From IMG/VR virus record IMGVR_UViG_3300045988_111327, positions 1 through 39,203 of that record: 39,203 nt of DNA; one strand, given 5' to 3'. This DNA comes from a virus. Each line of letters begins with the position of its first letter. Position 1 is the stretch's first letter. The translations under genes were made by a program, and so were the position numbers. The notes under the pieces were generated by a model. That model saw only the letters and a program-made list of their open reading frames with translations, made no database searches and had not been told where the DNA came from. Positions 911 through 26,925 of this stretch are shown one piece after another.

Positions 911-1774
911 ATGAGAAAAAGTATTGCTTTCTTGATAATGGCATGTGGGATTGCCTTAGCCGGTTGCAGCACGAATACAGATAAAGCGAAATCTTCAAGT
1001 TCTTCCAGTTCATCAAGCGTTGCAAGGTCATCATCGGTTAAACCTGACCCTAACGCATCTGAGCGGACTTGGACTTACAAGAACAACGTTTTTGACGCTG
1101 GCAACGAAACTTATCGTTTTACCAAATGGAACGTTATGGATTCAGCAGATCAAGGCAAAAAGATTCTTGTCCTTTATTGTGATGTTACTAACAACTCGAC
1201 AAAGGAAATGGACCCGTCAAACGTATATATGGTAGTTGGTGCCTATCAGAAAAACGAAACTTCTGACGTGCAGCTCACACCGGGAATGGCAGCATTAGAT
1301 GAAAATGGGGACAATCCATTACAGCAATATGAAGACGGGTTATACAACAAGTTGCTTCCTGGAAAGACCGTTAAAGCGGTTATGACGTTCACTATCAACA
1401 ACGACAAACCGGTTCGTTTGGAATTTGAAAATCCTAATTTTGAAACGATTGGGACCAAGACTTACAAAGTTAGCAAGAAATTAAGCAAAGCGGAAAGAAA
1501 GAAACTTAATCAGTCTAGCTCTTCTTCATCTTCTACAACGCAAACAAATGCTGTTTCGCAAACTAAAACCGTTCCCCAGAACAATGGCGGTAGCAGCACT
1601 ACCCAGACATCAAGTTCAAGCAGTAGCGATCAAACTTACACTGCTCAACCATCGCAAGGCGGTACTATTTATCAGACTGGCAACGACACTGGCAGTTTTG
1701 CAGGCGACCCAGATGCTATTGCAGACACGCAGCAAATTCAAGAAAGTCTTGCAAAAGCGAATGGTTGGGAATAG
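911..1774 (+). CDS. Ser/Thr-rich lipoprotein, candidate superinfection-exclusion protein
   Basis: Signal peptide with lipobox LAGC (Cys19). Poly-Ser linkers and a beta-rich central domain. Sits between repressor and integrase, where Ltp/Sie-type genes are found. Confidence 0.7.
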   Translation: MRKSIAFLIMACGIALAGCSTNTDKAKSSSSSSSSSVARSSSVKPDPNASERTWTYKNNVFDAGNETYRFTKWNVMDSADQGKKILVLYCDVTNNSTKEMDPSNVYMVVGAYQKNETSDVQLTPGMAALDENGDNPLQQYEDGLYNKLLPGKTVKAVMTFTINNDKPVRLEFENPNFETIGTKTYKVSKKLSKAERKKLNQSSSSSSSTTQTNAVSQTKTVPQNNGGSSTTQTSSSSSSDQTYTAQPSQGGTIYQTGNDTGSFAGDPDAIADTQQIQESLAKANGWE

Positions 1775-1790
1775 CAACTTAAACAAAAAT

Positions 1791-1815
1791 AACCCTAGCT
1801 GTTACGGCTAGGGTT
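1791..1815. terminator. Stem-loop after the lipoprotein gene
   Basis: AACCCTAGC-tgttacg-GCTAGGGTT. The T-run is clear only on the minus strand (ATTTTTGTTT); the plus-side tail is only TTT. Confidence 0.45.
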
Positions 1816-1858
1816 TAAAAATAGACTTAAATCGAACATATGTACGAAAGGATTTACT

Positions 1859-2953
1859 ATGGCTTCTTTTACTAAACGAAACGGAAAATGGCAAGCTCGT
1901 ATCAGCTGGCATGATGAAAATGGAAAACTTCACCAGAAAGCAAAGTCTGGATTTGCTACCAAAGCACAAGCGAAAGACTATGCAACTCAAATTGAAAATG
2001 AGCTGATCAATGGCGTTGATATTGCAGCAGACCCGGTTTTTGCCGACTACTTCAAGACATGGTGTGAAACTTATCGCTTGCCGAAAATATCAAAAGCAAC
2101 GGCTCGCAACTATATGAGTTATTACCGAGTTATCACAAGTTATTTTGGTGAAACTAGAATCAAGCAGATCAAGCGCAGCACCTATCAGCAGTTTTTAAAC
2201 GACTATGGCAAAGATCACTCGTTGGGAACAATGAAAGAAATGACGTCAAAAGTTAAAGCTTGCGTTAGATCAGCTATTGCAGACGGTATCATCACTAAAG
2301 ACTTTACCTATAATGCAAATATAACCTATGACAAATCGCTGACACGCAACCCTGAGTATTTATCCATCAATGAGCTTAAACGGCTTATATCAGCCCTTAA
2401 TGACGATTTAAAACCAGATAACGTTAAGCCTTATATCGTTTTGACTGCTATTTATACCGGCGCAAGATTTTCAGAAATTATCGCTTTGACTTGGAAAGAC
2501 GTTGACTACCTGCACCGAACGATCACGATTAATAAATCCATTGACTATAAGTACAATACCGGATTTAAGCCAACCAAAAATGAAAGTTCAAACAGGACAA
2601 TTCGAGTTAATGGTGAGCTGCTTAAGATATTGTCGCAGCTAAAAGTTAATCAAACGCCACTTTTGTTTGCTAAAACTCCGCAATCTTTTCGCACTATTTT
2701 CATAAAAAAAGTTAACGCCTATCTTAAATCAACTATGGAACGAATCGGAATTAAAAAACGCGATTACACATTTCATGCGCTCCGCCACAGCCATGTTGCG
2801 TTTCTTTTAAGTCAAGGAATCGACATTTACGCAATTAGCAAACGATTAGGGCACTCAAATATGACGACAACTAGCAATGTATATGCTTACTTGATAGATG
2901 AATATAAGCACAAGCTGGACGATGAAATTGAGCGCAAATTAGCGCAATTATAG
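1859..2953 (+). CDS. int: Tyrosine recombinase / phage integrase
   Basis: Catalytic signature: GARFSEI (Arg), HALRHSH (H-x-x-R, His), LGHSNMTTTSNVYAY (Tyr). N-terminal SAM-like domain. Confidence 0.93.
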   Translation: MASFTKRNGKWQARISWHDENGKLHQKAKSGFATKAQAKDYATQIENELINGVDIAADPVFADYFKTWCETYRLPKISKATARNYMSYYRVITSYFGETRIKQIKRSTYQQFLNDYGKDHSLGTMKEMTSKVKACVRSAIADGIITKDFTYNANITYDKSLTRNPEYLSINELKRLISALNDDLKPDNVKPYIVLTAIYTGARFSEIIALTWKDVDYLHRTITINKSIDYKYNTGFKPTKNESSNRTIRVNGELLKILSQLKVNQTPLLFAKTPQSFRTIFIKKVNAYLKSTMERIGIKKRDYTFHALRHSHVAFLLSQGIDIYAISKRLGHSNMTTTSNVYAYLIDEYKHKLDDEIERKLAQL

Positions 2954-2959
2954 CCGTCG

Positions 2960-3149
2960 TTGCACTAATATTGCACTGCTAAACTATAAATGCTGTTATA
3001 TCAACGTTTTAACGATGTTAAATACCTTGTCGATAAAGGTCAGCATAGTGTTCTATAGTTTTTTATAATGCACGAAACCGTATATTATCATAATTTAGTG
3101 ATATATAATAATATATAAATATTATAACCATTGCACTTTTCGTTGCACA
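2960..3149. promoter_or_regulatory. attP arm region with four TTGCAC(T) repeats (putative integrase arm-type sites)
   Basis: TTGCACT at 2960-2966, 2971-2977 and 3131-3137; TTGCACA at 3143-3149. They flank a very AT-rich stretch just downstream of int. Confidence 0.5.
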
Positions 3150-3174
3150 AAAAAACGGCCGTCATTGACGACCG
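3149..3174 (-). terminator. Rho-independent terminator (minus strand)
   Basis: Minus strand: CGGTCGTC-aat-GACGGCCG (one mismatch) followed by TTTTTTT. Confidence 0.55.
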
Positions 3175-3318
3175 CAGCCCCACTTGCGGTGGGGATAACA
3201 CAAATTAAGACCCAAGGTATTCTAATATCTATATCTGGATCACACCCGCTTTGGGCGGGTACTAAATAAGCTAATGCCTAATTTAATTATAGATTTCAAT
3301 CCGCGTGCTGAAAGCACG

Positions 3319-3345
3319 AAACAGCCGGTATCGCTACTGGCTGTT
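3319..3345. terminator. Stem-loop terminator at the end of the moron operon
   Basis: AACAGCC-ggtatcgctact-GGCTGTT, with a T-run on the plus side (TTTATTTTAT). It directly follows the stop codon at 3352-3354 on the minus side. A second small hairpin, GTGCT-gaa-AGCAC, lies at 3305-3317. Confidence 0.55.
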
Positions 3346-3351
3346 TTTATT

Positions 3352-3933
3352 TTATAGCAATTTATCGATTTCAGCAATTCGTTTCAGCAAACGTTCTTTA
3401 TCGTCAAGTAGCGCTTGGCGATCAATTTTAGGCTCGCTGACAATCTCAATAGTTGCATGCTTTACTTCAGCTTTCTTTGCCAAGCTTTCTGGGACGTTAT
3501 ATACAATGATTTCCGTTCCCTTGCCAAACTCGATTGTTGGGTATTTCATTGAACCGCCTGACTTGTATTTGCCTTTGACGGTTACACCATCGGCAACTTT
3601 TACGCCGGAATCACGACCACGTGCCGACATGATTTCACGGCCGAACAACGTCATTACCAGCTCGTTGTCGATTGATTGGATATCGCCTAAATCGCAATCA
3701 TCAAGAACCGTTAGCTTAACGGTTACTTTTGGTTCGTTATTTTCTGAACCGTCAGTACCATAGACATCACGCAGCACCCGCTTTGCGTCTTCAAGACTTT
3801 CAACAGGTACTTGCCATTCTTTTGTGGCAGCATGCCACTTGGCACTGCCAATGCTATGGATTTTCTTTACAAACTCTGGATTGAATGGGCTACTAATGTA
3901 TGCCTTATCGGCTTCGGTGCGAATTGAAATCAT
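3352..3933 (-). CDS. Hypothetical moron protein (N-terminal DUF5710-like motif, beta-rich core, C-terminal coiled coil)
   Basis: RBS AGGAGG 6 nt upstream of the ATG. The motif SAKWHAATKEWQVP resembles the AKWD..K.W.VP domain. No enzymatic motif recognised. Confidence 0.7.
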   Translation of the reverse strand: MISIRTEADKAYISSPFNPEFVKKIHSIGSAKWHAATKEWQVPVESLEDAKRVLRDVYGTDGSENNEPKVTVKLTVLDDCDLGDIQSIDNELVMTLFGREIMSARGRDSGVKVADGVTVKGKYKSGGSMKYPTIEFGKGTEIIVYNVPESLAKKAEVKHATIEIVSEPKIDRQALLDDKERLLKRIAEIDKLL

Positions 3934-3944
3934 TTTTATGCCTC

Positions 3945-4511
3945 CTAATCAAAATACGTGTCGTAAATTTGTTCAACAAGTTCTTCCGCTTTAACAGAAT
4001 TGGTGAACAATTCTTTAAAGTTTGAGTTTTTGCCTAACCAGTCTAATAGATCATTGCCACATAGATTGCTATTATCAATGACAACCAAGCCTTCGCCTTT
4101 AATATCGATTGAACCGTCTTCGTGCAGCTCGATAATGCTATTCAGATCATCAACAAAGTTTTCGACAAATTCAGCGGTGGTCATCTTTTCTTCTTCCGCT
4201 TCATCATTGTAGATGCTAACAATATCTTCTGGAAGGCCAACAGTTACGCCTTCCTTTGCTAATCCTTGCAGTTCTACCAGTTCGTTCAATTCCAGTTGTT
4301 CTTTCTTCATCATTTTAATTTCCTCCTCGTTATCGTTGATGAATGTTTGAAACTTTTCAAGCGTGGTCAGCCAAACTTTACTCCAATCTGACCGGCCAGA
4401 ACGCAAGTTAGAAATTGTTACACGGTTAACGCCCGTGCCCTTTTCTAGCTTAGTCGTTGGTATGCCAGAATCGCATACCAACTTTTTGATTGCTGTTGTA
4501 TCAATAATCAT
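3945..4511 (-). CDS. Hypothetical moron protein: N-terminal HTH-like segment plus very acidic C-terminal domain
   Basis: RBS AGGAGG. N-terminal TKLEKGTGVNRVTISNLRSGR looks HTH-like. The C-terminal 120 aa are rich in D/E. Confidence 0.7.
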   Translation of the reverse strand: MIIDTTAIKKLVCDSGIPTTKLEKGTGVNRVTISNLRSGRSDWSKVWLTTLEKFQTFINDNEEEIKMMKKEQLELNELVELQGLAKEGVTVGLPEDIVSIYNDEAEEEKMTTAEFVENFVDDLNSIIELHEDGSIDIKGEGLVVIDNSNLCGNDLLDWLGKNSNFKELFTNSVKAEELVEQIYDTYFD

Positions 4512-4522
4512 TTAGCAGCCTC

Positions 4523-4867
4523 CTAGTTTAAATGGTCCCGCTTGCTTAAGATAATATCTCCGTTCCAGCGTTTGCCGTCTTTGTAGAAATAATACCGGTC
4601 AAGACCTGGAACCCACTTGCGTTCAAGTCGAACAATCTTTCCTTGCAGGTTGTTCTCATCATATGGCAAGTTAGCCATTGGATTGTTATCATTAAGGGCT
4701 TTTGTTTCCATATCCTTAGTTACTTCCAAACCCATTGAACGGGTTAAGTGTCCCGTTTCATCGAGCGGGTCTTGGTTTACCCAGTTCCAGTTTTCGGTGA
4801 AATCTTCCAGGCTGATCAGCCCGTATTTCTTCCAGTTTTTAAAAATCTTTGTTTCTTCAATTTTCAT
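4523..4867 (-). CDS. Hypothetical moron protein (114 aa)
   Basis: RBS AAGGAG. First gene behind its own promoter. No recognised domain. Confidence 0.65.
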   Translation of the reverse strand: MKIEETKIFKNWKKYGLISLEDFTENWNWVNQDPLDETGHLTRSMGLEVTKDMETKALNDNNPMANLPYDENNLQGKIVRLERKWVPGLDRYYFYKDGKRWNGDIILSKRDHLN

Positions 4868-4910
4868 TTTTGATTCGCTCCTTTTTTGTTAATATTTCTT
4901 TACAAGTATT

Positions 4911-6585: not shown

Positions 6586-7101
6586 TTAGTTAGTTGCCTT
6601 TGCATTTGCCAGTAGTGCACTGGTCAGACTAGCGATTTGCGTACCTTGCTGCTTAACCGTCATTTGCGTTTGCAGCAGTTGAGCAGTAAGCAATGCAACA
6701 GTAGTTTCATCGCTCGATTCAGTTTTTTCGGGTTCTTTCAATTTATCGATTTCTTCCTTTGACAACGTTTCAACCCACTTATTTTGGGACTTGTCAAATT
6801 TTGGCTTGTACATACCTAAGCCGTTTTCATCTGACGGCTTAATCGTTGTTTCGTTGGAATTTAAAACCGCATCTTTTGTTGCGATTTCTAGATTATCTAA
6901 GCTACCATCACTGTCATAATGATAGATAGTAATCAGTTCCGTGTTATCAACCCAATTTTGCCCGTCCCAGTACGCATTAGCAGTTTGAGGCGCTACCAGT
7001 GTTTGACCTTCTGCCAATACGAAATTGTCATCAGCGTTTTCAGTTCCTAAAAACTCGTGCATGCGATTTTTTGCATTGTAAAGATAAACTACTTTACTCA
7101 T
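6586..7101 (-). CDS. Hypothetical tail-fibre-associated protein with C-terminal coiled coil
   Basis: ORF with RBS. Lies between the fibre genes and the XkdX-like gene. Confidence 0.6.
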   Translation of the reverse strand: MSKVVYLYNAKNRMHEFLGTENADDNFVLAEGQTLVAPQTANAYWDGQNWVDNTELITIYHYDSDGSLDNLEIATKDAVLNSNETTIKPSDENGLGMYKPKFDKSQNKWVETLSKEEIDKLKEPEKTESSDETTVALLTAQLLQTQMTVKQQGTQIASLTSALLANAKATN

Positions 7102-7112
7102 TAAAACACCTC

Positions 7113-7544
7113 CTAGCCAACAATCAGCAACGAAATCATAGCGCTAAATGGGGATAGATCGAAGTTATAACCGTTAGTCATCAAGATCTTGCCACCGCCT
7201 TGGTCAAAGCTCAGACCACTAGCAGGACTACCGTCAATATACCCGCTTTGCGCAAAATATGATCCAAACAAGTTCTTAATGTCGTCTGACATTTTAACGA
7301 TTTCGACCTTTTGCCCTTGCTTTACAGTTGGCGTAGTACACCAACCGGAAAATTCAAGGATTGTCAGTCCGCCCGCTTTATATTTGCGCCAACACAAATT
7401 ATCGCCGCCGAACCCGTTAAGGCTAGTTAGCCCTACCTTGCTCCACTCCGTACCGCTACCACTAGCAGCGTTCAGTTTTTCAAAGTTGGCTTGGATAGCT
7501 TCGGGCCCTTTATCCATGCCACTAAAAATCTTAGTAAGGTCCAT
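7113..7544 (-). CDS. Hypothetical structural protein (fibre/receptor-binding region)
   Basis: ORF with RBS AGAGGTGA, tightly packed after the fibre genes. Confidence 0.6.
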   Translation of the reverse strand: MDLTKIFSGMDKGPEAIQANFEKLNAASGSGTEWSKVGLTSLNGFGGDNLCWRKYKAGGLTILEFSGWCTTPTVKQGQKVEIVKMSDDIKNLFGSYFAQSGYIDGSPASGLSFDQGGGKILMTNGYNFDLSPFSAMISLLIVG

Positions 7545-7555
7545 TTTTTCACCTC

Positions 7556-8026
7556 TTAATTTTTAAAATAAATAGCCTTGACGCCATCGAATGCGCCAAA
7601 GCTACCATCATCTAATTTTTGCATTAGTTTGTTGTCTGAGAATTTGTCAAACGATGAAAGAATCTCAAGCGTGCTAATGCCGTTAGCAACACTAACCACT
7701 TCAACTGACAATGTTTGACGATTCCCACCACCGAAAAAACCGCTAGGCTCAGTCCCAATTGGAACGCTACCTAATGGATATTCCAGATAGGTTACAGTGT
7801 AGGTTGTTCCTACTGTTAAAACCGTAGGAACACGAATACGAATGCCATGCGTGTTGACGGCCAGCCATGAGCCAGCTCCATCTCGAATGCCGTTCCAAGC
7901 ATAGACATGAAACCAATAGTTGGTTCGCGGTTTAAGGCCAGTTACCGTGTACGACTTGGCACTCGTTGTTGCAATCAAAGTAGTAGCGCCATTCTTAGCG
8001 CTGCTATCTTCAATTCGAAACTGCAT
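7556..8026 (-). CDS. Tail-fibre distal segment: starts with the C-terminal part of an FN3 domain, then a beta-rich head
   Basis: YTVTGLKPRTNYWFHVYAWNG matches FN3 strands E-F. In frame with the upstream ORF, separated only by TAA plus 4 codons. Confidence 0.7.
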   Translation of the reverse strand: MQFRIEDSSAKNGATTLIATTSAKSYTVTGLKPRTNYWFHVYAWNGIRDGAGSWLAVNTHGIRIRVPTVLTVGTTYTVTYLEYPLGSVPIGTEPSGFFGGGNRQTLSVEVVSVANGISTLEILSSFDKFSDNKLMQKLDDGSFGAFDGVKAIYFKN

Positions 8027-8038
8027 AAGATCACCCGC

Positions 8039-8548
8039 TTAAGTCCAACTTAACTTGACAGAGTTAGTCGTTACATCGCTTGCCGTAAGGTTAGATACGT
8101 TGACCAGTGCTTCATAGACCGTGATAGTTACCACGTTTGACGTCTTAGTGCCAATAGTTGCTTTAATCGTGGTCGTACCAGGTGCAATTGCCTTGATATT
8201 GCCAGACTGATCAACCGTTGCAACTGTTGGCGTGGTACTGGTCAGCGTGTAGTGCCCGTCCGTTTCGTTAGCAGGCGTTACCGTTACGCTGGCCTTAGCC
8301 GTGCCACCGACTTCAAGCGCAGTCTTATCAATCGCAATCGTGATAGATTGTACTGGAATTTCGCTCGTAGTTACCGTTACGATGTTCGACTTGGCGCTTT
8401 CACGCAGTCCGTTGTAACTACTTACAGCAAAACGATAGGTCGTTTTTGCTTGCAGACCCGTAACCGTGTAGGTTTTCTGGTCGGTAACTTCCGCAATCTT
8501 AGTAAGTTCCCCACTAGCGCCTACACCTTGATAGATGTAATACTTCAA
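8039..8548 (-). CDS. Tail-fibre segment: FN3 (C-part), Big_2-like Ig domain, FN3 (N-part)
   Basis: YTVTGLQAKTTYRFAVSSYNG (FN3). VQSITI...TLTSTTPTVATVDQSGNIKAIAPGTTTIKAT (Big_2-like). Ends NLTASDVTTNSVKLSWT (FN3 strands A-B). TTG start. Confidence 0.7.
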   Translation of the reverse strand: MKYYIYQGVGASGELTKIAEVTDQKTYTVTGLQAKTTYRFAVSSYNGLRESAKSNIVTVTTSEIPVQSITIAIDKTALEVGGTAKASVTVTPANETDGHYTLTSTTPTVATVDQSGNIKAIAPGTTTIKATIGTKTSNVVTITVYEALVNVSNLTASDVTTNSVKLSWT

Positions 8549-8568
8549 CTTAACTATACCCCTTTAGT

Positions 8569-9930
8569 TTAGTTGCGCCATTCTAGCCGTTGCGTGTGTT
8601 CATCAATATAGATAGCTCGCAGATCACTTGGGCTTGTAGGCTTGCTGAAATAGCCCGAACCGCCTGCAAGGGTGCTCTTGCCTTTGCCCTCTCCAGTCAG
8701 TGCCAGTTGCGCGTTAACGTTACCCAGACTGACTTTAATAGTTTTGTAGCCATCGTGAACATACCATGCACCAGCACTCGATTCAAAGTTAGGAGCGTCG
8801 CTTAAATAGAAATTACGCGGCAACCGTACCTTAATCGTGTTGGCATCTGGATACGTAGCCATGCATGGAACTAGCTTTGTGTTAGTTTGTCCAAAACCGC
8901 TTGGGCCACTCCCAAGCCCGTTTGGCTCGGTACCAATTGCATACTCGTAGTACATGACTTTTGGTTCTGGATAATCAGCTTGATTGTGTACGATTGTGAT
9001 TTCGTACCCGTAAAGCAAGTCTTCCAGACTATCAGCCGTAACCATGCTTGCGTTACGCTCGGCAACCATGCCATTAGACAGTGCAATGACGTTGGTACCG
9101 TCTGGGGTTTCGTCCTTATGCTTAACGCGAATTTGCCAAACAGCGCCATGCCCGTCATCGTAGTTATCCCAACCCTTCGTGATTGCAAGGTCGTTCGCAG
9201 CTAATGCAGCATAACTTTGCATGGTCGGGACATCGCTGAATTGCCATGCTCGATCGTGGAACTGAGCTTGTTTCAGCGTTTCTTGGATTTGTTGCGTCAT
9301 CTCCAGCAGTTGATTATAGCGAACGTACAACCCATTCTTAGGGTCGTTCACTTCTGCCATTGCGTCGTTCAACGATTGCTTGTACTTAGCCAACCATTCG
9401 CTGAATTCCTGACTGTACGTTTCGCCCGCTTCATTAAGCTTGTCCTTAATCGCGTTGCCTTTGTCGGTTACTTGCTCAAGGATTCGTTCAAACTCTCCGA
9501 TATAATCTCGGCCGGCATTCCCAACGTGTGCAAAAAACTGGTCGTCGATAACATCAAAATCCATGTCAACGGTTGATACCGTTTGACCGTCTCGGCCAAT
9601 GAAACGAACAAAAAACTGTTGCCAGTGTCCAGGAACGTTGAAAGTGCGTTCGTCAAAGTGCAGCGTTACCCGTCCCAATGCGATTTGATCGTTGCGATCA
9701 TTAGCTTCTACTGGATAGATATGCTTATGCACGTACCCTTGATTGTCGACACCGCCGTATTCGTATTGCCAACCCCGCATATCAACGGGCAAACTATTGC
9801 TAGTGATATACACCGGCAAATAGTCGTCCGTGTCACCTACACGACCTTTGAAATACCCGCTAATATCTAAGATTTGGTCTTGATAGCGGGTTAGATCAAG
9901 CGTTAGCCGTGCCTTTTCTCGTAATGCCAT
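8569..9930 (-). CDS. Baseplate upper protein (BppU-like) ending in the N-terminal part of an FN3 domain
   Basis: N-terminus LDLTRYQDQILDISGYFKGRVGDTDDY is BppU_N-like. Central coiled coil. C-terminus PTSPSDLRAIYIDEHTQRLEWRN. Confidence 0.75.
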   Translation of the reverse strand: MALREKARLTLDLTRYQDQILDISGYFKGRVGDTDDYLPVYITSNSLPVDMRGWQYEYGGVDNQGYVHKHIYPVEANDRNDQIALGRVTLHFDERTFNVPGHWQQFFVRFIGRDGQTVSTVDMDFDVIDDQFFAHVGNAGRDYIGEFERILEQVTDKGNAIKDKLNEAGETYSQEFSEWLAKYKQSLNDAMAEVNDPKNGLYVRYNQLLEMTQQIQETLKQAQFHDRAWQFSDVPTMQSYAALAANDLAITKGWDNYDDGHGAVWQIRVKHKDETPDGTNVIALSNGMVAERNASMVTADSLEDLLYGYEITIVHNQADYPEPKVMYYEYAIGTEPNGLGSGPSGFGQTNTKLVPCMATYPDANTIKVRLPRNFYLSDAPNFESSAGAWYVHDGYKTIKVSLGNVNAQLALTGEGKGKSTLAGGSGYFSKPTSPSDLRAIYIDEHTQRLEWRN

Positions 9931-9944
9931 TCATTCACCTTCTT

Positions 9945-10121
9945 TCATCGTTCGTTCAAAGTGTCTTCGTCAAGGCCATATGAATTTAGGAAGCCATCTA
10001 CTTTGTCTTGCTTTGCAGCTAACAGTTCAAAGCCTTTTGCGATAGCTTCCCGAACATCTTTGCCATACTGAGCCTTACGAATCGTTTCAGCAATACTTTT
10101 CATATCATCAGTGGTTGCCAT
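9945..10121 (-). CDS. Small structural protein (58 aa; below the track cutoff)
   Basis: Hand translation: MATTDDMKSIAETIRKAQYGKDVREAIAKGFELLAAKQDKVDGFLNSYGLDEDTLNER. TAATG overlap with the stop of the upstream gene. Confidence 0.6.
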   Translation of the reverse strand: MATTDDMKSIAETIRKAQYGKDVREAIAKGFELLAAKQDKVDGFLNSYGLDEDTLNER

Positions 10122-12412
10122 TAGCTTGCCCCTTTCAGCTTATCAACTTCGGCTTTTAACTTATCAAAATCAGCTTGCGATACATAGCCCGCCGGTATCT
10201 TATCGTTAATGATTGATTGCAATTGACGCATGTCAAACTTAAGCTGCGTTACGTCTTCACTACTTGTCACGTTCTGAATAATCGTAGTTGTGCTTGACGT
10301 GTTAGATTGACCGCTCGCCTGAACCTCAGCTACACGGCTAACGATAACTTTAACCCGTTCCAAGTCTTGCGCTTGACGGCTTGTTTCCAACTGATAGTCA
10401 GTCAGCCCTAACGACTTATCGCCGATAGTTAGCGTTGACTTGTGCGGTTGTAGTAGGTCAATTTCTTTCTGCACTACTCGCAGCAATTGCGATTGCGCTA
10501 CATAAGGATTGATGAACATATACCGGTCGGCAACTTTGAAATGATCAAAGTTAGGCAAGTTCAGTTCAACCGCGCTGACTTCCCAGCTTTCTGGCACTCG
10601 CTGTGCGTTGATCCATGCTTTCGCTTGGTTCATCAAGTCGTTAGCGTCGGTTACTTCGTTGAACTCAATCGTGCCGTTGATAATGCCAAACTCTTTTTGC
10701 AGCTCCGGTATATCGATATAATCTCGCCCTTCATTGACGCTAGTAATCGTTAGTTTTGGTCTAGCAGCGTTTGAGTTGCTGACCTCTTCTTTCTTACTTT
10801 CATCTTTAGACTGTGAACCATCACCGCCGTTTTTGATCAACGCTTGCGGATCTAACCACGTGCCATCGTTTGTAAACGACTTCTTGACCGCTTCATAAAA
10901 ATCGGCTTTGGTAACCCCGACGTGCAAATGGTCGGTGTTTCGCCAACCGATAACATCACCGGTTTTGACCTTATCGCCAATGTTGACTCTGATTTGGCCA
11001 GCACTGCTGAACGCTTCTTGATAGACAATATTAAAACCGTCCGTGCTGTGCGTTACAACGTAGTTGCCAAGCCCGCCCATGTAGCCCTTGAAAACAACCG
11101 TGCCACCATGGATTGCGTGAACTTCACTTCCTGGGTGATCAACCGAACCAAAATCTAATCCATCATGAAATGAATTGGGTCTAAAGCCACCATCGTAACC
11201 GAATTTTTGGGCTTGGCTAAAACTGCCTTCGCCGACACTAGGAAACGGCCAGCCCCAACCATTTGTGAGTGTTTCGGTCGCGGTATCAGTAACTGGACCA
11301 TTAACCCGCCGTGTACCAGTTGGGCCCCAACCGCCGGCATGTGAAATATCGGCTAACCAGTTGGAATCGTTGAACATCGCTAAAAGTTGATGAAAACCTT
11401 TATGAATGTCTTCATAGCCTTGTACCTTCCATTTATCGAACGTTGGCTGAATATACTGTAACAGCCCTGTTGACGGGTGCCCTGCCTGTGCGTTGCTGTC
11501 CCAGTTGTTCGTTACCGTTTCACTACCACCGGATTCCTGGTTGATACGCCTTAAAATAGCGTTCAACCCGTTCTGGTCAAGGTTAACGTTCATTATCTTC
11601 GCAGCATGCTTAATGGCTTCTGTCCAATCGCCATTAATAGCGGTTGTTGCACCACCACCAGTCGTTATTGTTGAGTTTTCGCCGTCAACCTCGACTTTTT
11701 GGGGCTCTAACTGTTTGCCCAACGGAACGAGCCTAGTTATGACCTTTGTAGGGTCAATCGTAAGGCTAGCCGATTTCATGTTAACTGCTAACTGGATAGG
11801 CGTATCGCTCTTGTGATCGTTGCCAATATCAGTTACATAGTCAAGCATGTTCGGGCCGTCCTGCTTGTATTCTGTTACCAGATACCCGCCCAGCTCGTTA
11901 ATCAGCTTGTCTTTGATTGCGTCCCGTGTTTTCGGGTAGTCGATTTGCCGATAAGCATCATCTTTGTTGTTAGTAACGTTACAGTTACGCAACTTGAACT
12001 GTTTGTACTGTGGCACTTGGCTGTTATGAACATCAAGCAGCGATTGCAGAAACTCTTTCGGGGTTAGCCCAACCGCTTCATAAAACCGCTGAATGCTATC
12101 TAGCAAATATGCTTCAATATCCTCGAACGTGTACGTTCTAATGAACCGCCCGCTTGATTGCATTTCCTTCTTCGGCTTGATTGCCCGGCCACGAAACAGC
12201 AGTTTATCGTCATCATAGACTTCAACGTGCGTGTGCATCGGCCGAACGTTATCAAACAGCAAGCTATCACGGTTAACTGTTAACTCCAGATCATCAATAT
12301 CAGTTTCTTTGATTGTCAACTTGCCTTCGTTAACCGTTCGATTAACTCGTTGATCAAGCACGATAAAGCCGTTTTTGTCGGTAGGTTCGTTATATCCGAT
12401 AATGCGATACAT
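10121..12412 (-). CDS. Tail-associated lysin (Tal): prophage tail endopeptidase N-domain, lytic transglycosylase, M23 peptidase
   Basis: SLT-like ESGGSE...GLLQYIQPTF. M23 motifs HDGLDFG and HLHVG. Sits after Dit. Confidence 0.85.
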   Translation of the reverse strand: MYRIIGYNEPTDKNGFIVLDQRVNRTVNEGKLTIKETDIDDLELTVNRDSLLFDNVRPMHTHVEVYDDDKLLFRGRAIKPKKEMQSSGRFIRTYTFEDIEAYLLDSIQRFYEAVGLTPKEFLQSLLDVHNSQVPQYKQFKLRNCNVTNNKDDAYRQIDYPKTRDAIKDKLINELGGYLVTEYKQDGPNMLDYVTDIGNDHKSDTPIQLAVNMKSASLTIDPTKVITRLVPLGKQLEPQKVEVDGENSTITTGGGATTAINGDWTEAIKHAAKIMNVNLDQNGLNAILRRINQESGGSETVTNNWDSNAQAGHPSTGLLQYIQPTFDKWKVQGYEDIHKGFHQLLAMFNDSNWLADISHAGGWGPTGTRRVNGPVTDTATETLTNGWGWPFPSVGEGSFSQAQKFGYDGGFRPNSFHDGLDFGSVDHPGSEVHAIHGGTVVFKGYMGGLGNYVVTHSTDGFNIVYQEAFSSAGQIRVNIGDKVKTGDVIGWRNTDHLHVGVTKADFYEAVKKSFTNDGTWLDPQALIKNGGDGSQSKDESKKEEVSNSNAARPKLTITSVNEGRDYIDIPELQKEFGIINGTIEFNEVTDANDLMNQAKAWINAQRVPESWEVSAVELNLPNFDHFKVADRYMFINPYVAQSQLLRVVQKEIDLLQPHKSTLTIGDKSLGLTDYQLETSRQAQDLERVKVIVSRVAEVQASGQSNTSSTTTIIQNVTSSEDVTQLKFDMRQLQSIINDKIPAGYVSQADFDKLKAEVDKLKGAS

Positions 12413-13182
12413 TAAACCATCTCCTCACGTTTAAAGACAAACTCAATCGTGCCATTGCCAGACAAATTAATTTTGTTATCGCCAATATCAAGCACTACTT
12501 GCGTTTGCTTGTAGTTGCCATCGTTAAGCGACACTTCACCGAAACTTCCTTTTGCCTTGACGTTGCCAGTTACTACAAAAGACGACAAGACCGGCCGTGA
12601 ACCAATGTTTTTTACATTGACGTCCTGACTGCCATTAACGCTGAACTTGACTTGTTGCCATAACCAATGCGGAAAGAAAACATCGTCCCAATAGTCAGCG
12701 CCTTCGTTGTGGTTCGTGTAAGCATAAGGATATGCAGTAAACACGATTGACGCTTCAAGCGTTTCATTGTCGCTGCTATCGTCAACTTCAACACTCTTAC
12801 ACTTGGCCCACCAGTAATAAACCGGCTCGTGAGTATCAACCAACTTGCCCCAGTTGCGGGGCATTAGTTGCCGTTTTAATTCTTGTTCAAAACCTTTGCG
12901 GTTATGATACTCTTCGCCGACATATAACAGCTTGTAAGTGATTTCCCGATTGTTGAAAAACCGTTCGTTATCGATCATAGAAAAATCATAACTGCCTTGA
13001 CGATAGGGCACGCTTTCAGTGATTTCTTGCTCTTCCGGTGTCGGTGCCGTCCGTTCAGTCAACCACCAACCAGATTTAATACTATCGAAATCAGCGAAAG
13101 CAAAGCCTTCAACGTTTGGCAACGTGTCAACGTCAACTTCGGTTGGCGGTAAATCTCTGAATATATACTCCATTAACTCCAC
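12412..13182 (-). CDS. Distal tail protein (Dit)
   Basis: About 256 aa, directly between the tape measure and Tal; overlapping starts and stops. Confidence 0.75.
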   Translation of the reverse strand: MELMEYIFRDLPPTEVDVDTLPNVEGFAFADFDSIKSGWWLTERTAPTPEEQEITESVPYRQGSYDFSMIDNERFFNNREITYKLLYVGEEYHNRKGFEQELKRQLMPRNWGKLVDTHEPVYYWWAKCKSVEVDDSSDNETLEASIVFTAYPYAYTNHNEGADYWDDVFFPHWLWQQVKFSVNGSQDVNVKNIGSRPVLSSFVVTGNVKAKGSFGEVSLNDGNYKQTQVVLDIGDNKINLSGNGTIEFVFKREEMV

Positions 13183-26235: not shown

Positions 26236-26355
26236 GATGCGTAAGCAGCACGCCAACGACCACTGTCAACGTACATGCTAACTATATTAACTCAATGAAA
26301 AGTGAATTTTTTATTTTTCCCTCATGAGAAACAATAGTTTTTTGCCCGTAGGCAA

Positions 26356-26427
26356 CGTATCCCGCAGGAATCGAACCCACATCTTCCGCTATACATGGCG
26401 GCTGCTCGCCCATTGAGCTAAGGATAC
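26356..26427 (-). tRNA. tRNA gene with a non-canonical anticodon arm (4-5 bp stem, 8-nt loop CAUGUAUA); identity undetermined, GUA is the best 3-nt reading
   Basis: Minus strand: GTATCCT TA GCTC AATGGGC GAGC A G-CCGC-CATGTATA-GCGG-A AGAT GTGGG TTCGATT CCTGC GGGATAC G. Acceptor, D and T arms are canonical. No encoded CCA. Confidence 0.75.
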
Positions 26428-26925
26428 ACAACCCGCCGGCGTTGATAAGGAACACCAGTGCCGGAAGGATAATATATGCAAAGGATTATGCAACCCGTTT
26501 TAAATTATGCCATTTCTGGCAAAGGATAGGTAGTGGACTCGCACCACTTTTTGCATGCTGCTAACGCCGGTGGATCGTTCAAATAGCGTTAACAACAAGC
26601 CCGCCTGGGACCTTCCAACTACTCGTCGTGTCTTTCGAGTAGTTAACACCGTAAGGCGGAATCGTACCGCCTCGCAAATGATCATATATTGGAGCGATTA
26701 GGTTTAAGGTTTACGGAAGTAATCATTTGCCATCTTATACGGTATGACAAGCGGTTTCCCGCTCGTTAGGTAAAAAGTCGCTTCGCAATTCGCGAATATT
26801 TTTTCTTGCGCATGCAAGCCTAGAAAATCAAAGTATGACTAAATTAAATCGTTTTGAAAGGATTCCATTTCCAACAAATTTGAAAGACCATCGGAACAGA
26901 AAGGTTCTATGCCATCTCTGGCACA
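26428..26925 (-). ncRNA. Candidate large structured ncRNA (ROOL/GOLLD-like class) directly upstream of the tRNA
   Basis: Largest ORF-free gap in the genome. It holds a GNRA hairpin (26750-26763), T-loop-like hairpins (26654-26672, 26532-26548), a 9-bp hairpin (26617-26644) and long-range complementarities. The 5' boundary is uncertain. Confidence 0.5.

Follow-up and report, generated by a model that had tools for sequence, protein, structure and literature searches.

Fibronectin type III domains split between consecutive baseplate genes of Lactobacillaceae prophages and their probable reassembly in trans

The virus record IMGVR_UViG_3300045988_111327 of IMG/VR, whose full 39,203 nucleotides (nt) are referred to here as the window, is a Limosilactobacillus mucosae-type prophage. 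Three consecutive open reading frames in it (ORF1, ORF2 and ORF3; ORF1 shares 99% identity with an IMG/VR contig and 94% with a locus of L. mucosae DSM 13345) raise the question of why two fibronectin type III (FN3) domains should each be cut by a TAA codon just past a conserved tryptophan. A sequence-only reading of the window had pointed out these interruptions and offered three explanations for them, namely programmed readthrough or recoding that yields nested isoforms, genuinely split FN3 domains that reassemble in trans, and pseudogenisation of one ancestral gene or sequencing errors. Our results favour the second of these. That the FN3 domains are genuinely split between separately translated genes is firmly established, and the evidence described below makes it probable that the halves come together again in trans, as two distinct plug-and-socket pairs that chain the BppU-type baseplate protein encoded by ORF1 to the products of ORF2 and ORF3.

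The coordinates, termini, frames and stops of the two interruptions were confirmed. ORF1 ends in HTQRLEWRN followed by TAA, ORF2 begins with KYYIYQG and ends in NSVKLSWT (NLTASDVTTNSVKLSWT and then TAA), and ORF3 begins with MQFRIEDSS, so that both breaks sit in the FN3 B-C loop, one to two residues past the strand-B tryptophan. In the Pfam searches none of the polypeptides encoded by ORF1 to ORF3 carried a whole seven-strand fn3 domain (PF00041). The single ORFs matched it in part, over profile positions 41-82 and 41-76 at the beginning of ORF2 and ORF3, respectively, and over positions 3-21 at the tail of ORF2. Artificial fusions, by comparison, matched nearly the whole of the profile, with ORF1+ORF2 covering positions 2-83 of 84 at 37.1 bits and ORF2+ORF3 covering positions 3-76 of 84 at 50.1 bits, against half-domain scores of 27.4 and 25.9 bits. 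The segments that flank each stop thus make up one FN3 domain, as the sequence-only reading had supposed. For brevity the C-terminal A-B hairpins are called plugs and the N-terminal C-G parts sockets; plug 1 and socket 1 belong to ORF1 and ORF2, plug 2 and socket 2 to ORF2 and ORF3 (Table 1).

The residues expected in an FN3 core are kept on both sides of the breaks. In an alignment of 32 ORF2 homologues the residues W168, Y4, I5, Y6, L32, Y38, R39 and F40 are invariant, and with them the socket motifs Y-x-I-Y, L and Y-R-F. The strand-B tryptophan is kept in every BppU tail that has a socket gene after it, and is present in nearly all intact plugs. The two FN3 domains that can be rebuilt from the window are 38% identical to each other, and their plugs fall into two classes (identity 0.48-0.54 within a class and 0.25 between classes), both of which are kept across lineages. 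The two domains are paralogues that probably descend from a single ancestral split module which was later duplicated, and such a history would explain why both breaks are found at the same position. Inteins or trans-splicing were considered and rejected, as ORF1 to ORF3 gave no intein-related Pfam match and the termini are plain FN3 strands.

Table 1. Coordinates in the window of the split FN3 domains, the genes that carry them and other features discussed in the text (aa, amino acids; SD, Shine-Dalgarno sequence)
Feature	Coordinates	Strand	Description or evidence
ORF1	8569..9930	-	BppU-type baseplate upper protein, 453 aa; N-terminal domain, helical region, BppU_IgG, C-terminal FN3 A-B hairpin
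Plug 1 (FN3 strands A-B)	8572..8649	-	ORF1 C-terminus, aa 428-453, PTSPSDLRAIYIDEHTQRLEWRN; Pfam match of the fusion, conservation, AlphaFold2 model
Junction 2 (ORF1/ORF2)	8549..8571	-	ORF1 TAA, 20-nt spacer actAAAGGGGtatagttaag with SD, then ORF2 TTG in the -1 frame
ORF2	8039..8548	-	169 aa, TTG start; Pfam fn3 half, Big_2 (4.9e-13), fn3 half
Socket 1 (FN3 strands C-G)	8363-8548	-	ORF2 aa 1-62; Pfam fn3 41-82
Big_2 domain	8126-8356	-	ORF2 aa 65-141; Pfam Big_2 4.9e-13
Plug 2 (FN3 strands A-B)	8042-8116	-	ORF2 aa 145-169; Pfam fn3 3-21
Junction 1 (ORF2/ORF3)	8027..8041	-	ORF2 TAA, 12-nt spacer gcGGGTGATCtt (SD), then ORF3 ATG in frame
ORF3	7556..8026	-	156 aa; FN3 C-G half and second BppU_IgG domain
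Socket 2 (FN3 strands C-G)	7853-8026	-	ORF3 aa 1-58; Pfam fn3 41-76
Second BppU_IgG domain	7559-7846	-	ORF3 aa 61-156; Pfam E = 1.3e-23
ORF4	7113..7544	-	143 aa, putative receptor-binding protein; position and conservation pattern
ORF5	6586..7101	-	171 aa, tail-fibre-associated protein, last adhesion-module gene before the holin; PHROG 1766 'tail fiber protein', 8.9e-19
58-aa ORF	9945-10121	-	Between Tal and BppU, abuts the Tal stop; weak match to a PHROG of unknown function, 1.9e-05
Tal	10121-12412	-	
Dit	12412-13182	-	
tRNA-like gene	26355-26428	-	Rfam tRNA, 38.7 bits; 8-nt anticodon loop CAUGUAUA; ARAGORN assigns no anticodon

The split recurs in well over a hundred relatives. Those examined for the two breaks comprised 29 + 54 loci from IMG/VR and GTDB, ten contigs of other assemblies and one GenBank phage (individual loci are cited below by handles such as L008, and individual proteins by handles such as P0421), and both breaks recur in every one of them. 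This two-break pattern is far beyond chance, and the breaks are ancient and universally conserved among the relatives examined, which bears out the earlier remark that interruptions at the same structural position are hard to reconcile with random decay. Orthologues are split at the same sites as in the window, and no fused form was found among the homologues. The best 120 homologues of ORF2, which are 69-98% identical to it at 99-100% coverage, are almost all exactly 169 aa long, and their hosts include L. mucosae, L. reuteri, L. oris, L. pontis, L. fastidiosus and L. portuensis as well as Ligilactobacillus salivarius. The 32-sequence alignment of ORF2 contains no insertion or deletion (indel), and each sequence in it stops one residue past the tryptophan. 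The best 120 BppU homologues range down to 53% identity, with lengths of 399-470 aa or shorter fragments; those that bear the hairpin end zero to four residues after the motif RL[LE]WR, and none of the 120 has an fn3 or Big_2 domain fused to it.

A query in which the A-B hairpin was fused to ORF3 gave the same picture. It returned 57 matches of the ORF3 family, with identities down to 34% and none covering more than 83% of the query, and not one of these extends into the hairpin part; the other matches are ORF2 homologues, of which the hairpin portion alone was aligned. Most ORF3-family matches begin M-x-Y-[RK]-[IV], with strand C starting at residue 2, a few have an extension of two to three residues, and a single exception (P0421) is without strand C. 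A search of representative proteins with ORF2 was dominated by giant multi-Big_2 proteins and was uninformative on fusion state. Some ORF3 homologues, of 226-328 aa, carry inserted domains. In P0423 (307 aa) and at L073 5506-6105 this is a carbohydrate-binding module (CBM; Pfam PF02018, CBM_4_9) that interrupts the FN3 C-G half behind strands C and C', and those homologues of 284-328 aa with extra sequence that were checked (P0438 and the L. salivarius ORF3) end in a BppU_IgG-type domain.

The split forms have also been subject to selection. By the Nei-Gojobori method the ratio of nonsynonymous to synonymous substitution rates (dN/dS) in ORF2 is 0.087 for the C-G half, 0.188 for Big_2 and 0.211 for the A-B half, while the proportion of synonymous differences (pS) that separates the window from the prophages of reuteri, salivarius and fastidiosus is ~0.8. 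Purifying selection on both FN3 halves is therefore strong even at saturation of synonymous sites, and the split has outlived that divergence. In ORF1 the plug is 86% identical to distant homologues compared with 57% for the whole protein, which places it in the top 5% of 24-residue windows.

The junctions themselves behave as ordinary gene boundaries and need no recoding. In the window, junction 1 has the form TAA-AGDL-ATG, with 12 nt (gcgggtgatctt) between TAA and ATG in the same frame. The 20-nt spacer of junction 2, actaaaggggtatagttaag, contains ACTAAACTAA and has TAA stops in both frames, so that a simple slip could not join the two genes, as had been noted before. The duplex with the anti-Shine-Dalgarno sequence was computed at -13.3 kcal/mol for junction 1 and -8.4 kcal/mol for junction 2, and at -7.3 to -15.3 kcal/mol in the 18 junction pairs computed, against a background of -3.5+/-2.6 kcal/mol; both types of Shine-Dalgarno sequence (SD) also serve other genes of the window. 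All three stop codons (TAA, TAG and TGA) occur among the 64 unique junctions, each of which leads to a start codon; their spacers measure 0-21 nt, and frame offsets of 0/+1/+2 are seen in 11/8/10 cases at the BppU/ORF2 boundary and 20/2/13 cases at the ORF2/ORF3 boundary. Close relatives have BppU/ORF2 spacers of 17, 18, 20 or 21 nt in two relative frames with canonical SDs (AAGGAGG, GGGAGG), and the distant forms include 'LLWRGV TAA gcataa ATG', 'LEWR TAG gtaata TTG', 'LLWRD TAG tta ATG' and 'KLDWE TGA gaag ATG'. At the ORF2/ORF3 boundary some relatives have 5-nt out-of-frame spacers (e.g. TGA tatga ATG) and others two to three consecutive stops (TAG TAA; TGA TGA aaa TTG; TGA TGA TGA ATG; TAA TAG agg TGA), which are frequent in the in-frame junctions. 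At L008 7884-7892 the ORF2 Trp codon has mutated to TAG, leaving two in-frame stops.

Two explanations of junction 2 were tried and rejected. The sequence-only reading had seen a tandem 5-nt ACTAA duplication in the spacer, but the spacers of relatives are diverse and none suggests a recent 5-nt insertion. Bypassing of the kind known from T4 gene 60 finds no matching take-off and landing codons, and relatives have many unrelated spacers. Several distant relatives use their Trp-Arg codons (tGGAGG) as the SD itself. The GGAGG derived from TGG AGG was seen at L032 3985-4003 and L034 3988-4003, in both of which it lies 9-10 nt before the start codon, and in L059, L062 and others. This double use may help to explain why a gene boundary just past the tryptophan is so easily kept.

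A hidden Markov model scan of 83 loci for A-B and C-G halves found no C-G half that lacks an upstream A-B half in the same locus, although one contig starts too near the socket to tell. The A-B partner is either immediately upstream or, in an unlinked layout, on BppU. Every A-B match ends zero to five codons ahead of a stop, and the gene-starting C-G matches begin 0-18 codons after one, the sole exception lying downstream of the domain inserted in the ORF3 of L073. The unlinked layout is found in five loci (L042, L085, L087, L088 and L089), in which three genes and ~1 kb separate the plug gene from the socket gene. The order there is a short BppU (~295-300 aa) with hairpin, an RBP-like gene (RBP, receptor-binding protein), an ORF5-like gene, XkdX, and finally the genes resembling ORF2 and ORF3, the latter of them long (301 aa in L042, whose module lies at 1583-4906). 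Because the halves are ~1 kb apart in these loci, no recoding event can join them, and only assembly in trans can. Decay of the plug follows the same association. The hairpin is intact in every locus with ORF2 and is degraded only where no socket gene follows, with 25-26 intact and 0 degraded plugs where a partner is present against 7 intact and 6 degraded where it is absent (Fisher p ~5e-4, uncorrected for phylogeny). The degraded forms include a Trp-to-Arg change (L026/P0282), truncation (L020, P0347) and complete absence (L014).

Structure predictions are consistent with a plug that is unpaired in its own protein. In the AlphaFold2 (AF2) model of BppU the BppU_IgG domain is confidently folded, with predicted local distance difference test (pLDDT) values of 76-87, and outside it strands 437-443 and 446-451 of the plug form a dangling beta-hairpin whose pLDDT is ~44. 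High conservation combined with such a low-confidence, dangling hairpin is characteristic of segments that fold upon a partner. The ORF2 model has a mean pLDDT of 83.5, and its FN3 strand-E region (residues 23-36) is not beta-paired, which argues that the ORF2 hairpin is not docked on the socket of the same protein. Foldseek with the ORF2 model returned generic Ig-like, S-layer and fibronectin matches alone.

Taken at the level of sequence, incomplete folds and the matching missing strands are what we observe; from these we infer a physical complex, which would form as follows. Each C-terminal A-B hairpin would be a plug that is unstructured or dangling when alone, and would insert into the five-strand C-G socket at the N-terminus of the next protein, completing the FN3 sandwich around the conserved tryptophan. 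The BppU plug would enter the ORF2 socket and the ORF2 plug the ORF3 socket, and since the two pairs are distinct in sequence the result would be a defined non-covalent chain from BppU through ORF2, with Big_2 as a spacer, to ORF3. The second BppU_IgG domain, at the end of ORF3, could then add an outer tier of docking sites for the putative RBP encoded by ORF4, giving an extended two-tier adhesion arm. Short spacers and SDs that are often built from the Trp-Arg codons suggest translational coupling, which would favour equimolar synthesis on one mRNA and local assembly.

How much room do these observations leave for explanations in which the stops are not true gene ends? Programmed recoding could in principle yield functional fused isoforms, by TAA readthrough at 8039-8041 and by frameshifting or bypassing at 8549-8571. 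It would fit the L. mucosae group, where junction 1 keeps the frame, has one TAA and has spacers of 12, 15 or 18 nt, all multiples of three, and it could draw on the odd tRNA-like gene of the window, which has an 8-nt anticodon loop. A sister lineage described below also seems to need a -1 shift, but this lies between BppU and the hairpin and not within FN3. Beyond the L. mucosae group, however, junction 1 has out-of-frame spacers or several stops, and L008 already has two; junction 2 occurs in all three relative frames, with spacers of 0-21 nt and stops in both of the frames to be joined; and a slippery heptamer is absent. TAA, which ends 27 of the 46 genes in the window, is the most frequent of its genuine stops, a UUA, CUA or UCA anticodon is lacking in the tRNA-like gene, and a strong SD and a start codon are present where junctions were tested. 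Since stops, spacers and frames vary, start codons follow them and the halves are unlinked in five loci, recoding is unsupported and in our judgement highly improbable. A pseudogene of a ~790-aa ancestral gene, or sequencing or assembly errors, would accord with the obvious frameshifts seen in a few metagenomic relatives (L005, L018, L023 and L024). The stops are nevertheless found in every relative, whether from independent isolate genomes, metagenome-assembled genomes or viromes and from several host species, and no fused homologue is among the matches. Conservation at dN/dS values of 0.09-0.21 through saturating synonymous divergence, together with invariant protein lengths, effectively excludes this explanation and leaves its probability next to nil.

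Two further possibilities accept that the genes are separate. In one of them the FN3 halves do not reassemble at all; the hairpin has a role of its own, such as contact with the RBP or packing of the BppU trimer, the C-G parts fold or oligomerise alone, and the likeness to FN3 is a relic of gene fission. The high pLDDT of the isolated ORF2 socket (~90) would agree with this, as would the intact orphan hairpins in L010, L016, L017, L019, L021, L022 and L025, which are followed directly by an ORF4-like gene. We consider it unlikely, because FN3 core residues are kept in both halves, hairpin decay is confined to loci without a socket gene, sockets lacking an upstream plug in their locus were not seen, and the plug, though it ranks with the best-conserved parts of BppU, is predicted to lie outside its fold. 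A five-strand FN3 fragment without strands A and B would also expose its hydrophobic core. The other possibility is that ORF2, which holds one socket and one plug, closes on itself to give a circularly permuted FN3 with Big_2 as an insert, and that the ORF1 hairpin pairs with the ORF3 socket. Such intramolecular closure is topologically possible, and both ends of ORF2 have moderate-to-high AF2 confidence. It is very unlikely, however, given that the strand-E region is unpaired in the AF2 model, whereas it would be expected to be paired if strand B were docked there, that the two plug classes are distinct and both conserved, which fits two orthogonal pairs following gene order, and that no locus has BppU directly before ORF3 without ORF2. 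Some points count against reassembly of BppU, ORF2 and ORF3 into a chain and need to be kept in mind. The seven loci with an intact orphan plug lack a socket gene in the 6 kb to each side of it; they may reflect another role of the plug or recent deletions. The co-occurrence statistic for plugs and sockets is not phylogenetically independent. The inferences from AF2 were drawn from pLDDT values and DSSP strings, and the BppU model is poor overall with a mean pLDDT of 60. The two BppU_IgG copies of the window are weakly similar to each other, and the roles proposed for ORF4 (an RBP) and for the second BppU_IgG domain (the dock of ORF4) derive from gene position and homology with the BppU C-terminal domain.

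The sequence-only reading had taken these to be tail-fibre genes, but Pfam, PDB and PHROG matches show instead that, past Dit and Tal, a BppU baseplate gene is followed by two accessory genes, and the region is a BppU-type adhesion module. Its genes are all on the minus strand, in the order Dit, Tal, a 58-aa ORF, ORF1 to ORF5, holin and endolysin. Pfam places a BppU_IgG domain (PF18667) in ORF1 at aa 307-402 (E = 1.4e-40), and the PDB matches of this stretch are the C-terminal domains by which TP901-1 ORF48 (residues 192-262) and Tuc2009 BppU hold the RBP. BppU_N (PF10651) was not reported for ORF1 at E<=0.1, though it is precomputed for many close homologues. Besides the Pfam domains listed in Table 1, ORF3 matches residues 56-100 of FN3con. 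ORF2-type proteins are labelled 'major tail protein' in GenBank (OQ240258 CDS 11635-12123) and in PHROGs (PHROG 341), probably an erroneous label prompted by their Big_2 domain. Searches of the region DNA against GenBank phages by megablast and blastn gave no match. ORF4 gave no match in Pfam or the PDB. In the loci compared, ORF4-type genes always come after a protein that ends in BppU_IgG or after a hairpin, and their N-terminus is conserved (..IFSGM.KGPEAI.ANF..) while the C-terminus is variable; for these reasons ORF4 is likely to be an RBP that docks on BppU_IgG domains. The position of the 58-aa ORF is filled in some relatives by other small ORFs, of 59 aa in L030, 91 aa in L034 and 148 aa in L032.

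The layout of the module varies between loci. In the L016-type loci the hairpin is followed directly by the RBP gene. At L014 7288 the gene for a hairpin-less BppU of 429 aa shares ATGA with the following gene, which encodes a protein beginning MDLTKIF, as ORF4 does. These variants, together with the ORF3 homologues that carry inserted domains, support a modular system. A deletion at L010 7360-7430 joins the ORF1 stop to the 3' end of ORF3 and leaves an orphan hairpin.

A sister lineage presents a different arrangement. In five Latilactobacillus-type loci (L038 2400-2500, GenBank OQ240258; L100; L101/L074; L102; L103/L077) BppU ends in GDQSQ[PL] and a stop, and the hairpin is open in the -1 frame alone, this frame opening right after the TGA in a strictly conserved block, GGTGAYCAAAGCCAAC. 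The hairpins of these loci differ in their amino acids and include an in-frame 3-nt indel, and for that reason the -1 frame is held to be under selection. No canonical slippery heptamer was found at the BppU/hairpin site. A lineage-specific, non-canonical -1 frameshift may produce BppU with or without the plug. The GenBank phage TMW 1.1381 P1, in which the ORF2 homologue is annotated 'major tail protein', is among these loci. The lysate of the TMW 1.1381 strain contained no fully assembled virions (PMC10688831), so the frame arrangement of this lineage could also be a defect.

The tRNA-like gene of the window was considered in the same context. It is conserved in three related viral contigs (L039, L040 and L041), one of which has the loop UAUGCUAC and compensatory changes in the acceptor stem. 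Anticodon loops of 8 nt are typical of +1 frameshift suppressors. A suppressor tRNA or a reassigned code was rejected, since this sole tRNA-like gene carries no anticodon for a stop codon and TAA is the majority stop. A link between the tRNA-like gene and the FN3 junctions is not supported.

In chaperone-usher pili, the incomplete Ig-like fold of a pilin is completed by a strand of the next subunit (donor-strand complementation). The arrangement proposed here resembles this in that an incomplete beta-sandwich would be completed by a neighbouring polypeptide to give a directional, non-covalent chain of subunits. The fold here is FN3, however, and where a pilin donates a single N-terminal strand that replaces strand G, the upstream subunit here would donate both strands of its C-terminal A-B hairpin. 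Pili form a homopolymer with the help of a chaperone and an usher, whereas here there are two heterotypic pairs whose complementation we infer, and no candidate chaperone or usher was recognised among the neighbouring genes. Ig-like domains offer another comparison, as Fraser et al. reportedly described in J Mol Biol in 2006 that they are added to phage structural proteins by programmed frameshifting. FN3 and Big_2 domains likewise decorate tail and baseplate proteins here, and gene boundaries adjoin Ig-like modules. The difference is that in the window and most relatives recoding is neither needed nor possible, the boundary falls within the domain and not before it, and the downstream genes have start codons of their own, with an SD before them in the junctions tested.

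The BppU-(BppA)-BppL baseplate 'tripods' of the lactococcal phages TP901-1 and Tuc2009 are a further point of comparison (PDB 4v96, 3u6x, 5e7t; PMC4742702, PMC9692632). In both, the BppU_IgG domain type that is present in ORF1 holds the trimers of the RBP, BppU follows Dit and Tal, and the BppA protein of Tuc2009 extends the BppU arm as the accessory proteins here might do. The BppU of the window is longer (453 aa) than the TP901-1 ORF48 chain (299 aa). An FN3 hairpin tail is absent from the lactococcal BppUs and no split domain has been described in them, and the accessory proteins of the window (FN3/Big_2 and FN3/BppU_IgG) are unrelated to BppA. That the proposed mechanism is physically feasible is shown by engineered FN3 monobodies. 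According to PMC11666773, which cites Dutta et al. 2005, FN3 domains cut in a loop reconstitute from two fragments, and the reassembled domain is native-like and functional; the split monobody DAM21 is an example. The engineered cut falls in the C-D loop and is a laboratory construct, whereas the split described here lies in the B-C loop, is natural and genomically conserved, and appears to serve as a connector between subunits. Our full-text literature searches found no description of split FN3 or donor-strand-type assembly in phage adhesion devices, and the structural papers on P335 phages and Tuc2009 describe no split-domain linkage.

Whatever the fate of the halves after translation, the locus is a natural case of gene fission within one small domain that is stably kept by selection. 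Whether the FN3 halves go further and act as connectors that fold on binding seems to us evenly balanced. Orthogonal pairs would bolt optional modules (the Big_2 spacer, a second RBP dock, inserted CBMs) onto the BppU hub, even when encoded at a distance, and in Latilactobacillus a plug added by a non-canonical -1 frameshift would tune the number of arms per baseplate. On this reading it would be the first natural split of a single domain that serves as a viral assembly device, and it would give protein engineering a ready-made orthogonal pair of connectors. If reassembly in trans is correct, it would mean that phage baseplates join subunits by fold complementation of split FN3, a principle known from bacterial pili and from engineered split proteins. 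It would provide synthetic biology with two naturally orthogonal peptide tags of ~25 aa and their cognate sockets. It would also correct the annotation of ORF2 homologues, now called 'major tail protein' or 'Ig-like domain protein', and of ORF3 homologues, now called 'hypothetical'. For the prophages themselves, which are very common in gut and food Lactobacillaceae, it would explain how host-recognition modules are swapped or added while the BppU hub is left untouched.

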